A stretch of DNA of 64,000 nt from Antechinus flavipes (GCF_016432865.1 NC_067400.1:340566001-340630000), one strand, 5' to 3'; shown: positions 5,960 through 22,380, numbered from the stretch's first letter. Made by a program: numbers and translations. The notes: generated from the letters alone by a model not told the origin.

Positions 5960-7370
5960 TTGTAAAGCCTGCATTTACTATTTCTATCTTTTTGCATTTG
6001 TTTGTAATTTTTTTGCCCTAGTACCTGATCAATTTTGCAAAAGTTTCATGTAGTGTTGTATAATCTTTTGATGTCCCATTTAGAAGATGTCATCAGTTTT
6101 TAAACTCTCATCTCTCCAGAAATTTGTTCAGTTTTATATTTTTCCTTTTTTTCACAGAATTCTTCAAAACTGAGAGAAAGATGTTGAAATCTTCTGTCAT
6201 TTTTACATTATTTTCTATGTCTTCTTGAAGCTCAGATAAAGTTTATAAATTTGGATGCTACGGCATTTGGTACATAAAAGCTTATTACTGATATTGGTTT
6301 ATTATTTATGTTTCTTTCAACATATTGTACTTTCATTTATATATATTTTTTATTTTTCAAATTTTTGCTTTTGCATTGTCAGATGTCAACATACTTCTGC
6401 TTTCTTGAATTAACTTATTGCATGGTAAATTGTTCTGTCTTCTCAATTTTATGCCTTTGGTTTTTAAATGTTTCTTGTAAGCAACAGATTGTTGAGTTTT
6501 GGTTTTCCAACAAGTCTTTCATTCTACTCTGTTTTATTGGATTATTTAATCCATTCACCTTTAAAGTTATTAATTAAATTTATATTTTCTTCTGTCTCTA
6601 AAATTAATTTTTTTGAATTTGTGATAACTTTTTTCTGTTATAAACACAATAATATGTTACTTCAGTTATATTAATTTTTTAGGAGACTTCTACTTCAATG
6701 GCTCTGATCCTCTCACTCCTGATATTCTCTTCTTATTCATTTCTGATTTCCCTTTGAATTTTCATTTATTAATTCTTTTTTTTCTCTTGTTTTTTTATGG
6801 TTTCATAATTTTAACCCATCTCCTTTTGCCCTCTCAATCAAGTAGATTCCCTCTTCCATGTCTCTCCTTTAACTTGTTTTGTTTGTTAGTTTTTTAAAAT
6901 TTCATTTTTTGTGCTCTTTGTGAAAAAAATATTTTTCTCACTTTTCATCATAAATCCTTTCATTTTGTCTACTTTAGAGGTTCATTCTCTCATTTATAAT
7001 CCTGGTCTTTCTCTTTTCATTCCTCATTGCTAGCCCTTGATTTGATCCCAGCATACCACATCCTTTACCCTCTTCATGTACCCTTCCATTGTAATGTCTC
7101 ATTAACCACCGCCACCACTAACACCATAACATTGATTCACTTGTAGTCAGTTTGTTGAATAATACTTTTTGCCCATCTCTTCACTGTTACCTTTGCTAGA
7201 TTTCTGCCTTCACCTGTGATTCCTTTAGAAAGAAATCTCTTAGTCACTTTGTTGCTGTTGCTATCTTTGTGTACTGCATTTATTTATTCCTCCTGCATTT
7301 TTGTTGTTTAGGGTGTTTGAGAAGCAAATAATCTCTTCACTTTTGATTTTCTTTCTAAAAAGTGTTCCAC
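5960..7370 (-). mobile_element. Old, decayed L1 (ORF2 endonuclease region and upstream sequence)
   Basis: T-rich antisense L1 text, e.g. 'gatcaattttgcaaaagtttcatgtagtg', 'atttggatgctacggcatttggtacata', 'ggattatttaatccattcacctttaaagt'. Confidence 0.65.
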
Positions 7371-7374
7371 TGCA

Positions 7375-8153
7375 ACACTAGTACATTATTGGTGGAGTTG
7401 TGAACGGATCCAACCATTCTGGAGAGAAATTTGGAATTATGCCAAAAGAGCTATCTAACTGTGCCTACCCCTTGATCCAGTAGTATCTCTACCAGTCCTG
7501 TATCCCAAAGAGATTATAAAAAAGGGAAAAGGACCCACATGTGCAAAAATATTTGTAGAAGCCCTGTTTGTAGTGACAAGAAACTAGAAACTGAATGGAT
7601 GCCCATCAGTTGGGGAATGACTAAGTTATGGTACATGAATGTTATGGAATATTATTGTTCATGAAACAATCAGCAGAATGATTTCAGAAAGGCCTGGAAA
7701 GACTTGTGAAATGATGCTAAGTGAAGTGAGTAGAACCAAGAGAACATTGTACACAGCAGTAACAAGATTATGTGATGATCAATTGTGACGGACTTGGCTC
7801 TTTTCAGCAATGAGGCGTTTCGGGCCATTTCTAATAAATTTGTGATGGACAGAGCCATCTGTATCCAGAAAGAGAACTATGGGGACTGAAGGTGGATTAC
7901 AACATAGTAAGTACACCTTTTTTGTTATTGTTTGCTTAATTTTTTTTCTCATTTTTTCCCTTTTTGATCTGATCTTTTTTGTTTAACATGATAAATGTGG
8001 AAACATGTTTAAAAGAGCTGCACATGTTTAACCTACATTGGATTACTTGCTGTCTAGAGGTGAGGAAAGGAAGAGAAAAATTTGGAACACAAGGTTTTGT
8101 AAGGGTGAATGTTGGAAACTATCTTTGCATGTATTTTGAAAATAAAAAAGCTA
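7375..8153 (+). mobile_element. 5'-truncated marsupial L1: ORF2 C-terminus and 3' UTR
   Basis: 'ttggtggagttgtgaacggatccaaccattctggagag...tatgccaaaagagcta'; ends at the poly(A) signal 'aataaaaaagcta'. Confidence 0.92.
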
Positions 8154-9335
8154 TTTTTTATTATTATAGCTTTTTATTTACAAAACATATGTATGAGTGA
8201 TTTTTCAACATTGACCCTTGCAAAACCTTCTGTTCCAACTTTTCCCTTCCTTTCCCCATCCCCTCCCCTAGATGGCAGGTTGTCCAATATATGTTAAATA
8301 TGTTAAACTATATGTAAAATCTAATATATGTATACATATTTATACAGTTATCTTGCTGCATAAGGAAAATCAGATCTAGAAAGAAAGAAAAAAACCTGAG
8401 AAGGAAAACAAAAATGCAAGCAAACAATAACAAAGAGTGGAAATGCTATGTTGTGGTCCACACTTATTTCCCACAGTTTTTTCTCTTGGTGTAGCTGATT
8501 CTCTTCTTTACTGAACAATTCGAACTGGTTTGAATCACCTCATTGTTGTGAAAAGAGCCACATCCATCAGAATTAATCATTGTATAATCTTCTTGTTGCT
8601 GTGTATAATGATCTCCTGGTTCTGCTTATTCCATTCAGCATCAGTGCATGTAAGTCTCTCCAGGTCTTTCTGAAATCATCCTGCTGGTCCTTTCTTACAA
8701 AACAATAATATTCCATAACATTCATATACCACAATTTATTCAGCCATTCTCCAATTGATGGTCATCTATTTAGTTTCCAGTTTCTTGCCACTACAAAGAG
8801 GGCTGCCATAAACATTTTTGCACATGTGGGTCCCTTTCCTTCTTTTATGATCTCTTTGGGATGTAAATCCAGTAGAAACACTGCTAGATTGAAGGATATG
8901 CACAGTTTGACAGCTTTTTAAGCATAGTTCCAAATTGTTCTCCAGAATGGCTGGATCCATTCACAACTCCACCAATAATGCATCAGTGTCCCAGTTTTCC
9001 CATATCCCCTCCAACATTTGTCATTATCTTTTCCTGTCAACTTATCCGATCTGACAGGTATGTAGTGGTATCTCAGAATTGTCTTAATTTGCATTTCTCT
9101 GATAAATAATGATTTGGAACACCTTTTCATATGACTAGAAAAAGTTTCAATTTCTTCGTCTGAAAATTGTCTGTTCATATTTTGACCATTTATCAATTGG
9201 AGAATTATTTGATTTCTTATAAATTTGAATCAATTCTCTACATATTTTGTAAATGAGGCCTTTATCAGAACCTTTGAATGTAAAAATGTTTTCCCAGTTT
9301 ATTGCATTAGTTTTGTTTGTACAAAAACTTTAATA
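8154..9335 (-). mobile_element. 5'-truncated marsupial L1: ORF2 C-terminus and 3' UTR
   Basis: Track ORF 8918..9196 reads ...HMKRCSKSLFIREMQIKTILRYHYIPVR...KCWRGYGKTGTLMHYWW, the L1 ORF2 cysteine-rich C-terminal region. Confidence 0.95.
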
Positions 9336-9344
9336 AAAAGTTAT

Positions 9345-10330
9345 TAATAAAAATTTAAAAACTGTTTCAAATTCTTCTTTATATTGAAATCTATCGTTTC
9401 CCCTGCATGATAAAACTCAGATCTGCAGAGTGGGTAACCCTGTCCTGCATTCTGAGGTCTGTTGTTGCTCTTCAGAGCACATTCTTCCATTCCCTCTGTT
9501 TTCGTTTTTTTTTTTTTTTTTTTAGTGTGTATATAGAATAGTTTTGTGTTATTCAAATGTCTATTCCTTTGTATTTTATCTTACTTCTAGCTTTAGTATC
9601 TTTTTTGTTAATTTGTCACTTGTGCTCTAGGTTTTTAATGGTTTTTTTCTTTATGTGGACATTGGAGGTTCAATTTTTTCCCTTATATTGCCTTGTTTTT
9701 CACTTTCTGACTAGTTCTCTTTTGATAGTGGTATTTCTTTGGGGAATCCCTTTATTGCAAAGTGACTTCAGCCTCTTTTCACACTGGGGATGCATTAGAT
9801 TATTTAATCATTAAGCATTTACTCAGTTCCAGGCACCAGGAACACAAAGATCAAAAAGAAAAAAAAAGGAAAGAAGGAAGGAAGAAAGAAAAAGAAAAAA
9901 GAAAAAAAAAGAAACCAACTCTACTTTCAAAGAATTTACATTCTATACCTGACCAGGAACCAGAAAGTTTTTATATTTGTAAAAAGGCTGTTTCTCTATT
10001 CTTTGAACAGGTATTTCTCTATACTTGCCTTCTCCTGAAAAGTTCTTCTGACCATCCTGGGATTTTGAAAACTTGAGAAGGTACTTTTCACTAGTCTGGT
10101 CCTTGCCTCAATTAACTTTTTAGAGCACAAAACTGGACCCACATGAATTTCGATCTTTTCTTCAAGCTTAGTGCAATCAAGCATACTGGGCATTCAGCCT
10201 GGTTTGTTCTTTCCTGACTGAGCTGAATAAGAGTTTCTGCAATCTTGGGGTTTATTATCCTGGGGGCCACCTCAGGCAGAAACAAGACTGATTTCTTTTC
10301 CTCCTCTTTACATGAATTGGCAGCCAATAT
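9345..10330 (-). mobile_element. Old L1 ORF1 fragments with an intervening L1 ORF2-like piece (~9503-9790) and an L2 tail (~9795-9950)
   Basis: Minus-strand peptides KLEEKIEIHVGP (ORF1 RRM region), QREWKNVL*RATTDLRMQDRVTHSADLSFIMQGK (ORF1 CTD-like) and NVHIKK...LEHK*QINK (ORF2 post-endonuclease-like). Confidence 0.65.
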
Positions 10331-11245
10331 CTGTTTCTTGTTGCTATGTTAGAGTCCTATGTGAATGAAGTATGCTGACAGAGTTCCTGCAACATGAATC
10401 CCTTTGATTCCAAAAGCATATATGTGTGTATGGGAAGGGGAAATGAAATGAGATAACACATTAAGGATTAATGTTCCCCAGTGTTAGTTCATAACGCTGT
10501 TATCTTATTAAATTTCTTACTTTCTTCCCCTCCATATGCAGTCAGTTCTAATTCTCCCTCATTTATGTAATTGCTCTTTTTTTCTTGAGAATTAGTGATG
10601 ACTGATGAAAATTTGGAATCTTCCAACTCATTGGCCAACCTGGAACCTGAAAGTCTGACTGTAATTGTTTCCAGGCACTATGGGTTTCCTCTGTTCCTTA
10701 GATGCCTTCATAATTTGACTATTAGGCAAAATTAGGCTGCCTTTGGATTTACCCATTCTCTCTTGTAGGAACAGATGTCCTCTCCAGGACAGAAGCTTGG
10801 TCAGAATTGATTCAGAGGTACAAACAATTGGTTTCTACTTCATCTGAGTCATTATATCCTGAGCTATTATCTAGTTCTGATAATTTTCCTGCAATTGGTG
10901 AGACGGTTTTCATCTCGAGGTCTGCTTTGCTGACTGTCCATCACTCCTTTATTCCTCCTCATGAGGGAGTTGGACTAACTTTCCAACAGACAATAGGTGG
11001 TTTTGATATATTATCTTTGCAGGACCCTGGCCATTCTCTGGGGCTATCTTGTAAACTGGCAGGTTGTCAAGTAGCCTTTCAGCCACTTGATAGGGGATAG
11101 CTTTCCATCAGCAGGCTTACCTATGTGTTTGTTCCATATTGAATTTTTTTTTCTTTTACAGAATGCTATCAACTCACTGAAGATCTTAACAATGAACTTG
11201 AGCATCTGAGTTTTTCTTAGCTAAGACCACAGCTGGGTAGAAAGA

Positions 11246-11475
11246 AGTAGCATGCTGGTAAAATTTTATTCTCTGAAAAAAAACAAAACAAAACAACAAA
11301 GCATCCACTGCACACTTTAAATTTAATCTGCACCATTAACATTTTTTCTATCACTTTCTTAAGTCTAGACAATCAACAAAGCAATAAATCATGCCTTAAT
11401 TATAGTGTTTGCTGATTTCTGAGGTGTAAGTACTCACACTGAAAATTCAACAATTGGTTTTCATAAGCTGGCTTA
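11246..11475. mobile_element. MER63-like hAT (Blackjack group) non-autonomous DNA transposon inserted in the Gypsy integrase
   Basis: 'gcacactttaaatttaatctgcaccattaacattttttctatcactttcttaagtctagacaatcaacaaagcaataaatc...gatttctgaggtgtaagtactcacactgaaaattcaacaattgg' matches my recollection of the MER63 consensus; decayed TIR 'agtagcatgctggta'. Confidence 0.75.
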
Positions 11476-12042
11476 CTGCCTGGTTGAAGATCTCTTTTAG
11501 CTAATTATGTAGACGAGATACACTGGTTGTTTCAATGGCTGCGCATCTCTGTATCTTCTCTGTGTCTTGAAGTCAAGTTGTTAATAGGTCAAATTAGTAG
11601 ACAAAAGTGACTTTTGCCCCCAAAGCAGTAATATTGGGTAAAGTCTGTGACCTCATTACTTGGGTATTATATACATATTTTAGAAATGTCACTGAACCTT
11701 TTGTTCAACTGTCAGGGTGCCCATCAGTTTAGCATTGTTTGACTGGAAAACTGAAATACGAGTCTTCCTGAAAATGCTAAATTCTAGTTTCCTTACTCCT
11801 GCTGAAGCCAAATCTCCTTAGGTAGCTTGCTTTCAAAGTCCCAGAGGGGCTGGAGTGGACCCAATCAAGTAAGGAGCAAAGAGAGAAACACTTGTCCTGT
11901 GGAACTTTTGCTACCAAAGAAGCTTTCTGATTCTTAGTTAGGTAGAGAATGTTGACTCCTTGAGAGAAGAGACTGTTTCTCTTTCCCCTTCTCCTTTTTT
12001 TTTTTTTTTTTGGTCTTTGTTTTCTCAGGCACCTAAAACATG

Positions 12043-12286
12043 ATGTTGGTCAGTTGTTTAATTGTCTGTGGCTCCATTTGGGGCTCTTCTTGGCAAAAAT
12101 ACTGAAGTGGTTTGCCCTTTCCTTCTCCAATTCATTTAACAAACGAGAAACTGAGGCAAATAAGGTTGATTGACTTGCCCAGGATGACACAACTAATAAG
12201 TGTCAGAAGCCAGATTTGGACTTATGAAGACACGCCTTCCTGACTTGAGACTCAGTATTCTACCTATAGTGCTACCTAGCTGCTCT
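12043..12286 (-). mobile_element. Mar1-type SINE, preceded by an L2 3' tip (~11945-12040), both inside the Gypsy integrase
   Basis: 'cttggcaaaaatactgaagtggtttgccctttccttctcc...gaaactgaggcaaataagg...gctacctagctgctc'. Confidence 0.85.
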
Positions 12287-13177
12287 TCCTAGAATATAGC
12301 CTCATGCATTCCAGATGAATGGATAGTCACTACCTATGCAGTTGCATTATCTTCCCACTTCCATTATCCACACCCACACATGTATTTATTTATTTTTCTT
12401 GAGAGACCAAAAAAAAAGTCTATACATAAAAATTCCAACAGTTTACTGATGTTTACATCCCTCACATATGCAGTGTGATTTTCTATCACTTTTATTTGAA
12501 CACATCATACACAAGTTTCATTCTTCTTATAGACATTCCTTACCATTTGGAACTAGAAAAACCTATTTCTTATTAACAGGCCCCTTCTCTTCATTTATGT
12601 CCAAACTTATTATAATTGTTGACATGCCGTAGGATTAAATGTTTTAGATATGATTGAATGAACAAGTAAAAAAAGCATTTATAAAGTGCTTAATATGTGC
12701 CAGGTACTCTATTAAGTGCTTGGGAAAAAAAAAAACAAAAAGAAAGCCAGTCATTCCCCTCAAGAAGCTTACATTCTAATAAAGGAAGACAATCTAAGCC
12801 CTAGCTAGATCCAGATTAGATCAGTCAATTGAAGGACTTTCCATTCCCCATCTCCCCCACCAATCAGCTTTTCAAGGCTGTCAAAGCCTGACTGTCTGCA
12901 TTGAAATTTTCCCTGCCAGAGTCTAAGTACCCCCTACTTACATGTGCCATGAATTGAACCCCAATTTATGTGCTGTTTCCCTCAATTAAAATATAAGCCA
13001 CTGTCTCAGTTTTCTGTTTTTGTCCCAGCACTTAGCTTGGCACATAAGAAGTACTTAATAAATGTTTTTCTGTTCCTTAAGGAAAGCTTAATCAAAACTA
13101 AAAGAAGCTATTCTGAAGCTGTGAAATGATAATTACCATTTTTCAGAGTCCCTGTCAAGTATAGGTATATAGGATTT

Positions 13178-13772: not shown

Positions 13773-14745
13773 CTAGTTAATATTTAAGGTAGGATTTGAA
13801 CTCAGATTTTCCTGACTCCAGGTCAGTTGCTTTCTTTATTATTCTACCTACCTGCCTAAATGCTTTCTTATTTGCTGATTGTTTAATTGACTCTCAATGA
13901 GCCTCAGTTCCTTCATCCTTTGATTGTTCTCTTGTAGGGATTTTTGAAACTGAAAGGAAGGGAACCTGGACTTTGGTAAACACTACAGGGATAATTTTAA
14001 GAATAGAGAATCACTGACTTCAACAATCTTCCTAAAATTGGAGTATATCTTGAAGTCTTTGGTTTATATGGAGACTGACTACCCAGTGTCTTTCTGGAAA
14101 AAAAAATGCCTGAAAAAAAAACCTGCCAAGTGATTATCATTTGGTCAGTGCTATTTACAAGGACAGGATAGAGTGGATTTTTTTTTTCAACCATTAAAAA
14201 AATTCCCACCTGGTGACCTAACATTAATGAAATATTCATTTCATTTTCTTTCTGGTTAAACTTGTGTCTTGAAATGCTTTGTTGTATCTACTTAGGATGA
14301 TCAATGATGCCCTCCAGGGGAGGATTTCTCCAGTGGAATCCTGTGGAAGAGGACATTAAAATTGCATGAAGTCGCTCATATAATTTTAATGGCTATCAAA
14401 AGAGTTTAGGCTCAGATTGGAAAGAATTTAAACTTGGAACACTTTACTAGGGAAGGCTGACATAATATTGTATTGAGCTGACCCTACAAGGACCATTCAT
14501 GACATGCTCCAAGATGCAGTGTCAAAGACATATGACAATGTTTTCGGAGCTTCCTGTTCTACACAGGGGTTAGTCTTTCTAACTTAAGCCATTCTGGATC
14601 TAATATTTCTATGAGACAAGATAGTTGCATGGGTAATGTCACAGATGCAAAACTTGGGACTCAAATTCTTAGACTTTTGGTATTTGGAATAATCTATTTC
14701 TCTAGTATGGGTGAACGTAAGAGAACAGTGTATATGAATATCTAC

Positions 14746-14938
14746 CAGGGGTCCTCAAACTTTTAAAATAGGGGGCCAGTTCACTATCCCTCAGACTGTT
14801 GGAGGGCCGGACTATAGTAAAAACAAAAACTTTGTTTTGTGGGTCTTTAAATAAAGAAGCTTCGTAGCCCTGAGTGAGGGGGATAAACGTCCTCAGTTGC
14901 CGCATCTGGCCCGCAGACGGTAGTTTGAGGACCCCCTG
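14746..14938. mobile_element. OC1 (OposCharlie1)-type non-autonomous hAT MITE, copy 1
   Basis: TIRs CAGGGGTCCTCAAACT...AGTTTGAGGACCCC(C)TG, 193 bp; ~90% identical to the copy at 22189-22380. Confidence 0.85.
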
Positions 14939-15000
14939 ATTCTAGACTCTTGTTGTTTAGTTGATCTTAATTATGTCAGACTCTTTGTGACCTCATTTGT

Positions 15001-15149
15001 ATTTTTTTTTTTTTAGCTAAGGCAATTGGGGATAAGTGACTTGCCCAGGGTGACACAGCTAGGAAGTGTTAAGTGTCTGAATTCAGATTTGAACTCAGAT
15101 CCTCCTGCTGCAGGACTGGTGCTCTATCCATTGTGCTACCTAGCTGCTC
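15001..15149 (-). mobile_element. WSINE1-type SINE nested in a minus-strand Mar1-type SINE (~14951-15312)
   Basis: 10-bp TSD CCTCATTTGT at 14991-15000 and 15150-15159; T-run tail; canonical SINE body. Confidence 0.9.
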
Positions 15150-19651: not shown

Positions 19652-22188
19652 ATGGAGCTTCATTCCAATCTACAGGTAGTAAGAGGCAACAGAGAGTAAT
19701 ATCAGCTTAGGGAAGTTGTATTGAAGGTGATGGGCAGCAGCTCAGCTGATGTGCTTAGGAGAGAGAAAGGACCAAATAAAGATGAGTGTGATTCTATTAT
19801 GAGTCTGTGGACAGTTTTTCAATACTGGATGTGTTATAGTGTCTCTGGTTGTGAAAATGTTCCCTTTCATGTGTGCTTTCTAAAATGTGTTTCCATACTT
19901 GTATGGAAAAATGGGAAGGACTGGAAACTCTCTCAGGACAGAGATTGTCTTTCTTATTATTTGTATCCCTAATGCTTAGTGTAGTGCCTGGCACTTAAGA
20001 AATGTTTATTGAATTGAATTGAAACTTTCTCGACATTTGTTTTGTTCTTCTAATTTGATGGAATGATGTAGTAAAAAGAGTATATGTTTCTGAATAAAAG
20101 ATCCATTTGAATGTTTCTTTAGAACTAGCTGTGTAATTTTGCCTAAATAACTTAATATCTCTGAGTCTCACTATATGCTTCTGCAAAATGAGAATAATAA
20201 TAGCATTTACCTGAAAGGTATATTTGAGAATAAAATGAGATAATGTGAGCTAATATTACTAAGGAGATTTTAGGAAAATTATTGTTATAATTATCATAAC
20301 TAATGATAGATGCCTTTTACTTTGAACTCTGGTTTATAAAATCAAATACATTGGTAGGGGCTCATGAACTATGGTTTTGGTGGATATTGACCTATAAAAT
20401 GCCTTAATTCTGCAGCAGCTTTCTGGGGACTCTGTGAGTGCAGCTCTGGATATTGTGTAAGGGTTTGACATGCCTTTATTCATTCCTCAGCGTGTAGCCA
20501 TGGGGGCAAAAAAGGAACCAAACTCAGCTTTGTCAGTAATCCGGGAATTTTTTACATAATTCATCCATCTATCAATTAATAAGTATTTATTATTTTTTTC
20601 CCTCTCCTTTCCATTACCCCCATTCTCTTTGCCTTGTGTCTGTCTTTTTCTGTTACTATTGTAATGATGCAGTACTTTGTAGAAAGAGAGAATGGTCACA
20701 TTACTCAGAGGGGATATAGATTCGTAGTCAGTCAGGGTATACTGGTTATATATGATACACTTCAGTTTTCCTATTTGGAAGAGTAACATTTATATCTAGG
20801 TTTCCTGTAAAGGTCGAAGCTTAGGGCAGTTAATGATAATTTTAAAAAATCCTGTTTGGATGTACCTCTCATTAAAATTTTTTCTATGCCCATCCAAATT
20901 TAAGATTTTAATATTGTCATAATAATAAAAAAGCCTCAGATATGCTTAAGAGAGTCTTTCCAATACAAGCCTCATCTAAGTGTGAAATGAAAGTCTTTGT
21001 TCCTTCTGAAAGGAATTTCAGGCACCAGTGAGTGGCTATAGGAGGAATATTTTTCCTCAGAGGGGTAATTCCCCAAGTTTCTGTGTAATTGGCCACTTAT
21101 GTAAAACTACTTTGGTGTAGGCTTGGTCCTATTCAAAAGTCTCCATATTTTACAAACACTACTATGGCACGTGTCAGTACATATGATGCTCTAGCCTCTG
21201 AATAGTGTAAACTCCTAGAATCAAAGGACGACATCAGAAAATAGCTCTGTTCAAGGGTCAGCTTTATATAGCTGAATCCAAAGGGGTCACACGCATCACA
21301 GAAAAACCATTCGATTAAGAATCAAAGGATTTGAGGTTTGAATAGGAGCTCTGCTTTTTGACTGTCTGAGTGACATTCAACAAGTCTTTATTTTTCTGGG
21401 GGGGAGAATTAGAAACTAGTTCCCTTTTAGTTCTACACTCTTTGAAACCTAAAAGGAATAGGATTAAACATCTGCAGAAATAACTCAGCCTGAGATGGTT
21501 TTTTAAAGATGTTGTTTCCTAAATTTCTGCAGAAGAGACCAATATGGAAGAAAGCCTTGATTTGAAGAGTAAAAACAAGAACAAACTATAATTTAGGAAA
21601 TTTTAATATGTTATAAAAGAGCCTTTACTGAAGGCAGAGATTCTTGGTGCATAGGCAGGAATATCAAAATAGGAATGTTGGAGGGTAAGAATTTGTTAGT
21701 ATGTCTTTGGCCTTGTTCAGGAGAAAGGTCCCTGAGTTTGATTCTAGGGCCACTGGACCTGTTTCTTTTGACAGAAAATTCTCTAAAATGGAGAGGAGTA
21801 GTTTATCAGGCTACCTTAGTCTGATGGAATTAACCCTTAATATCACCTGACTAGAGAGTCAGCTTGGCTAACATAGCAAATCTCTCAACCCCTCAGGGAC
21901 AGCAGACAACTTTTAAGACTGAAAGCTCAGATCTATATCTGGGGAGGGAGTTTTTACATCTAGAGTTCCCTTCATAGACTAAATCATAGGATTGGATAAG
22001 ATTTAATCTCTCTCTTATTCTGATTTCCTATTCGTTATGGAAATGTTGGATTACAGATTTTAATGCTCTGAAAAACTCCCCTCTATCCTCTATCCCCTCA
22101 CTACAGGGTTTGGAGGTAGTTGTGATGACACTGTAATAATTATTACTGGTGCCAGTGACCAGTATTGGGATTTGGGCCACATATGTCA

Positions 22189-22380
22189 CAGGGGTCCTCA
22201 AACTTTTTAAATAAGGGGCCAGTTCACTGTCCCTCAGACTGTTGGAGGGCCAGACTATAGTAAAAACAAAAACTTTGTTTTGTGGGCCTTTAAATAAAGA
22301 AACTTCATAGCCCTGGGTGAAGGGAATAAACGTCCTCAGCTGCTGAATCTGGCCCACGGGCCGTAGTTTAAGGACCCCTG
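22189..22380. mobile_element. OC1 (OposCharlie1)-type non-autonomous hAT MITE, copy 2
   Basis: TIRs CAGGGGTCCTCAAACT...AGTTTAAGGACCCCTG, 192 bp; near-identical to 14746-14938. Confidence 0.85.

Follow-up and report, generated by a model that had tools for sequence, protein, structure and literature searches.

A decayed Ty3/Gypsy integrase and its inverted partial duplicate in the genome of the marsupial Antechinus flavipes

Does a 64,000-nucleotide stretch of the Antechinus flavipes genome (NC_067400.1:340566001-340630000; hereafter the window) hold the remains of a Ty3/Gypsy integrase, and if so, to which lineage did the element belong and does any part of it still work? A first-pass annotation, made from the sequence alone, had read a near-complete integrase on the minus strand that was invisible to the ORF track. 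All of the peptides that it quoted are found in the three minus-strand frames at the places given: FGHK near 12600, LIRNRFF*...TCV*C at 12576-12500, LLEFLCIDF at ~12440-12414 and TKNQKASLVAKV at ~11940-11905, with DFESKL, MGTLTVEQK and NEVTDFTQYYCFG likewise where they had been placed. None of them lies within a minus-strand stop-free frame of at least 120 codons.

We evaluated the identity of the remnant by tblastn, by profile search and by frameshift-aware alignment. The main tblastn query was P0002 (CAM4573172.1, Caretta caretta, 1827 aa), which carries PNMA (PF14893), RVT_1, RT_RNaseH, Integrase_H2C2 and rve domains and is a complete Gypsy polyprotein. Its two matches in the window span 12594-12253 (E 2e-10) and 11233-10904 (E 1e-12), and with 187 relatives as queries every match fell within 10500-12700 on the minus strand. 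A profile built from 60 full-length relatives scored 67 bits on the C-terminal part and 25 bits on the zinc-binding part; the reversed window gave no more than 2.4 bits. Frameshift-aware alignment, in which an X is placed at each break, gave scores of 263, 312 and 348 under three penalty sets, whereas the maxima of the controls (n=17 per penalty set) were 37, 49 and 81. Under the middle set, turtle residues 1263-1644 align collinearly with window positions 12652-10903, with 142 of 374 columns identical; this spans nearly the whole turtle integrase, and "near-complete" is a fair description. The zinc-binding region, core and C-terminal module lie in that order. With a score of 312 against at most 49 in 17 controls, and a tail that matches turtle Gypsy polyproteins, the minus-strand remnant at ~12652-10903 is confirmed as a Ty3/Gypsy integrase.

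Domain databases gave a thinner answer. The three raw minus-strand frames returned nothing relevant from Pfam, and the isolated zinc-binding piece had Integrase_H2C2 at E 0.41 as its sole relevant match. Of the profile matches that had been anticipated, Integrase_H2C2 was therefore barely recovered, while rve and the tail gave no match. Used as a lone query, the zinc-binding piece had none of seven protein-database candidates pass and no match in the PDB. Rfam placed no family in the window. The remnant and the features around it are as follows.

12298-12652, minus strand: integrase zinc-binding region and first core strands (E 2e-10; 25 bits; at least four stops)
11945-12297, no strand assigned: insertion 1, a multi-copy SINE plus an A-rich piece
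11445-11944, minus strand: catalytic core and helical linker with many frameshifts (5-10, depending on the penalty set)
11219-11444, no strand assigned: insertion 2, a stretch without integrase homology in the frameshift-aware alignment
10952-11218, minus strand: end of the linker (five stops) and C-terminal GPY/F-type module (67 bits)
10808-10951, minus strand: weak onward polyprotein homology past the stop of the tail (tblastn and frameshift-aware alignment; alone not significant)
10520-10533, minus strand: 14-nt purine run, a possible polypurine tract position (unproven; 25 such runs on the strand)
9797-10084, plus strand: inverted partial duplicate of 12067-11822 (minus strand), 75% identical over 237 columns

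Depending on the penalty set, the integrase alignment holds 17 breaks in 332 codons, 27 in 397 or 26 in 404. Three zinc ligands, the second His and the two Cys, are kept, and the first His is lost at a frameshift. The first catalytic Asp, which had been read as retained, is present in the motif CIDF and is the only one of the three acidic residues of the catalytic triad that is left; the copy has lost the second Asp and the Glu, each of which is invariant across the relatives (60 of 60). An active integrase would carry the D-D-E triad and the HHCC ligands in one frame, and a domesticated gene would carry an intact open reading frame. The copy has neither, its 17-27 breaks leaving a longest open run of 52 codons without a Met. 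With these breaks, two insertions and one remaining catalytic residue, the earlier description of the copy as pseudogenised overall is upheld. The copy does nothing today as a protein, and nothing here shows any present-day work by this relic.

The SINE part of insertion 1 (~12046-12290) is 72-81% identical to four relatives elsewhere in the window, and we take it to be MAR1-like. The A-rich piece (~11957-12045) is presumably L2-like, a label for which in-window support is weak. As an interspersed repeat, the A-rich piece was not established, its best off-site scores being 40-52 against 33-46 for shuffled queries. Our bounds for insertion 1 (12297-11945) are close to the 11945-12290 proposed in the first-pass annotation. 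Those of insertion 2 vary with the penalties, at 11444-11219 or, under the strictest set, 11532-11234, and differ from the 11246-11475 given there.

A further feature at 9797-10084, absent from that annotation, is an inverted partial copy of the element. Its ~290 nt take in the A-rich piece from insertion 1 and ~140 nt from the integrase core. Taken alone, the coding part and the non-coding part were each reached by 0 of 400 controls. With a score of 65, the coding part also stands above all of 622 other tiles, which reach 37 at most. At its flanks homology ends sharply, 344 of 400 controls on the left and 314 of 400 on the right scoring as high. Both copies share the same non-coding junction and a frameshift at the same place, so the duplication postdates the interruption and death of the element. 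The two copies are 72% identical, with a K2P distance of ~0.36 over 111 columns. This distance makes the duplication old and the death of the element older still. The simplest mechanism is a local inverted duplication via template switching, and this is probably how the copy arose.

An alternative is that 9797-10084 is the independent insertion of a second, non-autonomous member of the same family. The distance between the copies is in keeping with such an event, as is the Asp that the second copy keeps at the second catalytic position, where the main copy has lost it. Two insertions from separate events would, however, have to carry the same non-coding piece, the same junction and a frameshift at the same position, lie only 1.7 kb apart and yet show homology that stops sharply at both ends. 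We regard independent insertion as unlikely, and continue with local inverted duplication as the preferred reading.

The first-pass annotation had singled out the end of the C-terminal module as still open. This tail, at 11107-10952 on the minus strand, is a 52-codon stop-free frame with a TGA on one side and a TAA on the other, and its length proved to be at chance level. When the observed breaks were placed at random, a run of at least 52 codons arose in 48-72% of placements (P 0.48-0.72), and the next longest open run in the remnant is 46 codons. The tail is probably simply the longest gap between random breaks. It has no Met, and none of the 12 AG sites examined is a strong splice acceptor, upstream pyrimidine content never exceeding 59%. 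Its stop is premature, the frame of its turtle relatives running ~200 residues further. Downstream of it, homology to the C-terminal extension of six relatives was not significant, with 13-138 of 200 controls scoring as high.

The sequence of the tail is nominally better preserved than the rest. It is 60% identical to the turtle protein, and 29 of its 49 columns are identical against 108 of 293 elsewhere (59% versus 37%; nominal Fisher P 0.004). Of the highly conserved columns, 17 of 23 are kept in the tail against 66 of 146 in the rest (P 0.013), even though in living relatives conservation is lower in the tail than in the core (0.54 versus 0.72). Because the window was chosen post hoc, this extra preservation is not significant once that choice is allowed for: a permutation of the best 50-column window, the sole test that removes it, gave P 0.16-0.20. 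On the evidence of the alignment, constraint on the tail would seem neither shown nor excluded.

Could the tail nevertheless have been co-opted and constrained, with a role as non-coding regulatory DNA the most plausible and one as a small coding exon less so? Conserved and exapted protein fossils of transposable elements, Gypsy among them, have been reported (PMC9004415), and the identity of 59% against 37% is of the kind that co-option would leave, the more so in a segment that living relatives conserve less than the core. Set against this are the chance-level length of the open run, the permutation result, the stops on both sides of a frame that has neither a Met nor an AG with more than 59% pyrimidines upstream among the 12 sites, and the lack of a Pfam match to the tail. 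We consider co-option improbable, and read the tail as a chance survivor of decay.

Public sequencing runs were compared with the stretch by shared words. In 18 of the 24 listed rows, which cover nine studies and six coded organisms (one of them possibly the source), 0.29-0.88 of its words recur. This corresponds to ~0.4-4% divergence, as a figure for the stretch as a whole and not for any one part of it. These shares across related organisms fit a fixed orthologous locus. No RNA run is among the listed matches; the share of 0.06 in two rows guessed to be RNA carries no weight.

We next consider the lineage of the element. With the tail as query, two of six candidates passed, both of them from sea turtles and 60% identical to it (E 4e-6 and 9e-6). 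When 1.84 billion representatives were searched without filtering, the tail had 65 matches, of which nine have Ty3-type pol or PNMA domains, 54 have no Pfam family and two have unrelated families. The gag of P0002 matches the solved PNMA2 at E 2e-38, and the best match of its pol is Ty3 at E 1e-95. Among 121 long comparison proteins, which a search with the turtle protein had collected, the turtle-type ones (n=4) score 326-344, whereas the other 117 score at most 269 (median 231). With the alignment guided by a profile built without turtles, identity of the fossil to the turtle-type rows is 41%, against a median of 34%.

The closest known elements, the turtle polyproteins P0002, P0001 (Lepidochelys kempii), P0068 (clustered with named turtle proteins, Trachemys XP_034630384.1 among them) and P0009 (UniRef100_A0A8C3HVE1, Chrysemys), have an integrase collinear with the fossil. 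They are 38-41% identical to it overall and 60% in the tail, the nearest of the 121. The turtle proteins are intact single frames of ~1830 residues with gag, RT and RNase H, whereas the fossil is a broken integrase alone. The loggerhead turtle protein cluster has 417 member sequences, and all 15 of those listed are from sea turtles. P0009, from the painted turtle, is only 423 aa long, and in it PNMA_N and the PNMA capsid are joined directly to the integrase C-terminal module; it would be a member of this lineage that has lost its interior but kept its frame open.

The fossil and the turtle-type rows group together with an SH-aLRT of 98 in a tree of 29 rows, all gathered as lineage relatives, that comprises the fossil and 28 sampled relatives, none of them a retroviral or GIN1/Ginger outgroup. 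Excluded were P0072, for its long branch, and P0001, whose sequence is that of P0002. The tree rests on profile-guided placement, and a second run reproduced both the aligned row and the tree; in a first tree, which was discarded, the fossil had a branch length of 10 that was attributed to misalignment. The branch of the fossil is long, at 2.1 changes per column, and its composition was flagged. The single alternative placement tested was not rejected (p-AU 0.19), and diagnostic sites favour the turtle by 13 to 5 (P 0.096). Judged by sequence comparison, the fossil is very likely Gypsy, and the turtle elements are the probable nearest among the relatives compared. The proposed kinship with elements that carry a PNMA-like gag is supported in that the nearest relatives are turtle polyproteins with PF14893 PNMA. 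The fossil's own gag is missing, and on this indirect basis it likely belongs to the PNMA-gag lineage.

Comparison with known elements places the fossil in familiar company. MamGyp-int, MamGypsy2-I and X1_LR-X4_LR (Repbase/Dfam) are, like the fossil, decayed Gypsy internal sequence in a mammal, a likeness of kind; the fossil may be one of these or come from a marsupial sister family that has no name yet. The marsupial PNMA-MS1/MS2 and Gypsy12_DR-related remnants (PMC3789554), together with Gypsy-30_Ami, which has served as a PNMA proxy (PMC11011659), belong to the same broad lineage by way of the turtle PNMA-type gag. They are gag-derived, whereas the fossil is the integrase end, so the PNMA link is indirect.

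In its relatives the integrase follows RT and RNase H, whereas in the window it stands alone. No remnants of gag, protease, RT or RNase H were found in the window by tblastn with 187 proteins or with the 60-sequence profile, and no LTR pair was found there. Upstream of 12660 lie other multi-copy repeats. The loss of LTRs, primer binding site, polypurine tract and target-site duplication is what would be expected of a truncated old copy. Downstream of the purine run, to ~9700, are ~800 nt that have no other match in the window and are broken by the inverted duplicate. The purine run and these ~800 nt could be the decayed polypurine tract and 3' LTR, a reading that is unproven.

An integrase that stands alone, without RT, RNase H, gag or LTRs in the window, also invites the reading that the locus is not a direct retrotransposon insertion and instead a pseudogenised domesticated integrase gene of the GIN1, GIN2 or NYNRIN type, or a Ginger-type DNA transposon. 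GIN1, GIN2 and NYNRIN are likewise Gypsy-type integrase sequence in mammalian genomes, NYNRIN being a domesticated Gypsy pol segment (PMC9447858), and several relatives of the fossil are named "Gypsy retrotransposon integrase-like protein 1" in UniRef. The relatives so named are, however, full RT-RNase H-integrase polyproteins, the nearest proteins are the turtle polyproteins, and 0 of 10 tail matches looked up by name is a host gene. The weak homology also continues into the C-terminal extension of the polyprotein. Unlike the fossil, with its 17-27 breaks and two lost catalytic residues, the three genes keep an open frame. Such an origin is very improbable. An endogenous retrovirus integrase, for which one could cite the DDE fold common to both groups and the match of a foamy virus integrase to the turtle relative (E 2e-21), is scarcely credible, since the nearest matches are Gypsy (by best hits only), no retrovirus-specific integrase family is among the Pfam families shown for the 65 tail matches (for two proteins, the best five families only), identity to the turtle Gypsy integrase is 41% despite heavy decay and the zinc-binding region fits the Ty3-type Integrase_H2C2, if weakly (E 0.41).

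Other repeats were observed in the window. Two inverted long repeat fragments at 7369-7622 and 8742-8995, 81% complementary and 1.1 kb apart, have relatives at ~35400, 45200 and 50500-52700, and we take them to be LINE-1 3' parts on account of ORF2 motifs. Direct copies of 198 nt at 14738-14935 and 22181-22378 are 89% identical and 7.4 kb apart, and are a candidate younger repeat or small DNA transposon. Around an assembly gap, nested inverted arms at 62995-63213 and 63745-63989 (86% and 75% complementary), with relatives at 38827-38972 and 39557-39606, resemble the terminal inverted ends of a repeat, or else an artefact of assembly. Short SINE copies with poly(A) tails, presumably WSINE1-like and as such a pointer to an Australian marsupial, occur at 882-1007, 1360-1485, 14971-15096 and elsewhere. 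For host-gene context, the six frames of 50201-64000 were searched against Pfam, an insensitive test that returned 0 families.

These data allow us to propose a history for the locus. Most probably, an LTR retrotransposon of the PNMA-gag lineage of Ty3/Gypsy (Metaviridae) inserted in an early mammalian or marsupial ancestor and then decayed neutrally. In the order that we infer, the element would have inserted and its upstream part would then have disappeared or been overwritten by other repeats; next, an A-rich repeat piece would have landed in the integrase core; a ~290-nt piece across the junction of the A-rich piece and the core would have been copied, inverted, ~1.7 kb off, probably by template switching during repair or replication; and the SINE and the second insertion would also have landed in the element. 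If the MAR1-like and L2-like labels are right, the insertion is old. Mar1a,b,c are common to opossum, wallaby and devil (PMC3403934), and L2 movement ended more than 100 Ma (PMC4408412). In the integrase, 83 of 169 highly conserved columns survive, which suggests, as a rough figure, ~0.3 substitutions per site of decay. At a SINE rate of 0.0045 per My (PMC3403934) the age would be roughly ~70 My, and at half that rate 120-150 My. The range of ~70-150 My leans to a date after the marsupial-placental split without settling it.

Traces of Gypsy elements in the human genome are already described, as MamGyp-int, the MamGypLTR families and X1-X4_LR (PMC5753468) and as a further 83 Gypsy protein fossils of pre-amniote age, of which 80 were new to RepeatMasker (PMC9004415); among the genomes shown in Table 1 of the latter study there is no marsupial. 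In marsupials, Gypsy12_DR gag matches number 20 in the tammar and 14 in the opossum, mostly remnants, and transposition after the split has been argued (PMC3789554). Mammals are reported to keep just rare, highly fragmented Metaviridae remains, full-length lineages surviving in turtles (PMC3670739). The view that recognisable pol remnants are uncommon in mammals thus finds partial backing in PMC3670739, whereas a surprising rarity is at odds with the catalogues of such fossils in PMC5753468, PMC9004415 and PMC3789554. Among the papers covered by a literature search, none deals with this locus or, as such, with Gypsy integrase fossils of marsupials. The copy is an ordinary fossil of an already described class, and what is new here is the inverted duplicate.

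It had also been suggested that this copy could help to reconstruct a donor lineage for domesticated genes. The source of those genes is gag; the PNMA2 frame, for example, corresponds to the gag part of a MamGyp-int element (PMC9934673). With no gag end of its own and with relatives that are still intact, the fossil adds little on the donor. Reptile, amphibian and coelacanth elements have served as donor proxies (PMC11011659); as stand-ins for the PNMA donor, the intact turtle elements serve better than the fossil, and they are closer proxies than the fish elements compared here. On present evidence the fossil is not a gene candidate.

What the copy may bear on is the timing of these domestications, on which published accounts disagree, one tracing the PNMA genes of marsupials and placentals to a single domestication of remains already dead (PMC3670739) and another arguing for elements that were mobile after the split (PMC3789554). 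PNMA origin by one domestication in each ancestor has also been inferred (PMC11011659). A well-preserved insertion is a marker that can be dated according to whether opossum, diprotodonts, monotremes and placentals carry it at the orthologous site. It is possible, though doubtful, that the copy comes from an unnamed marsupial family of PNMA-gag-lineage Gypsy that was transposing after the marsupial-placental split and that marks the wave behind PNMA-MS1. Such a family, if real, would favour independent marsupial and eutherian origins of PNMA genes (PMC3789554, PMC11011659) over domestication from long-dead remains in the therian ancestor (PMC3670739).
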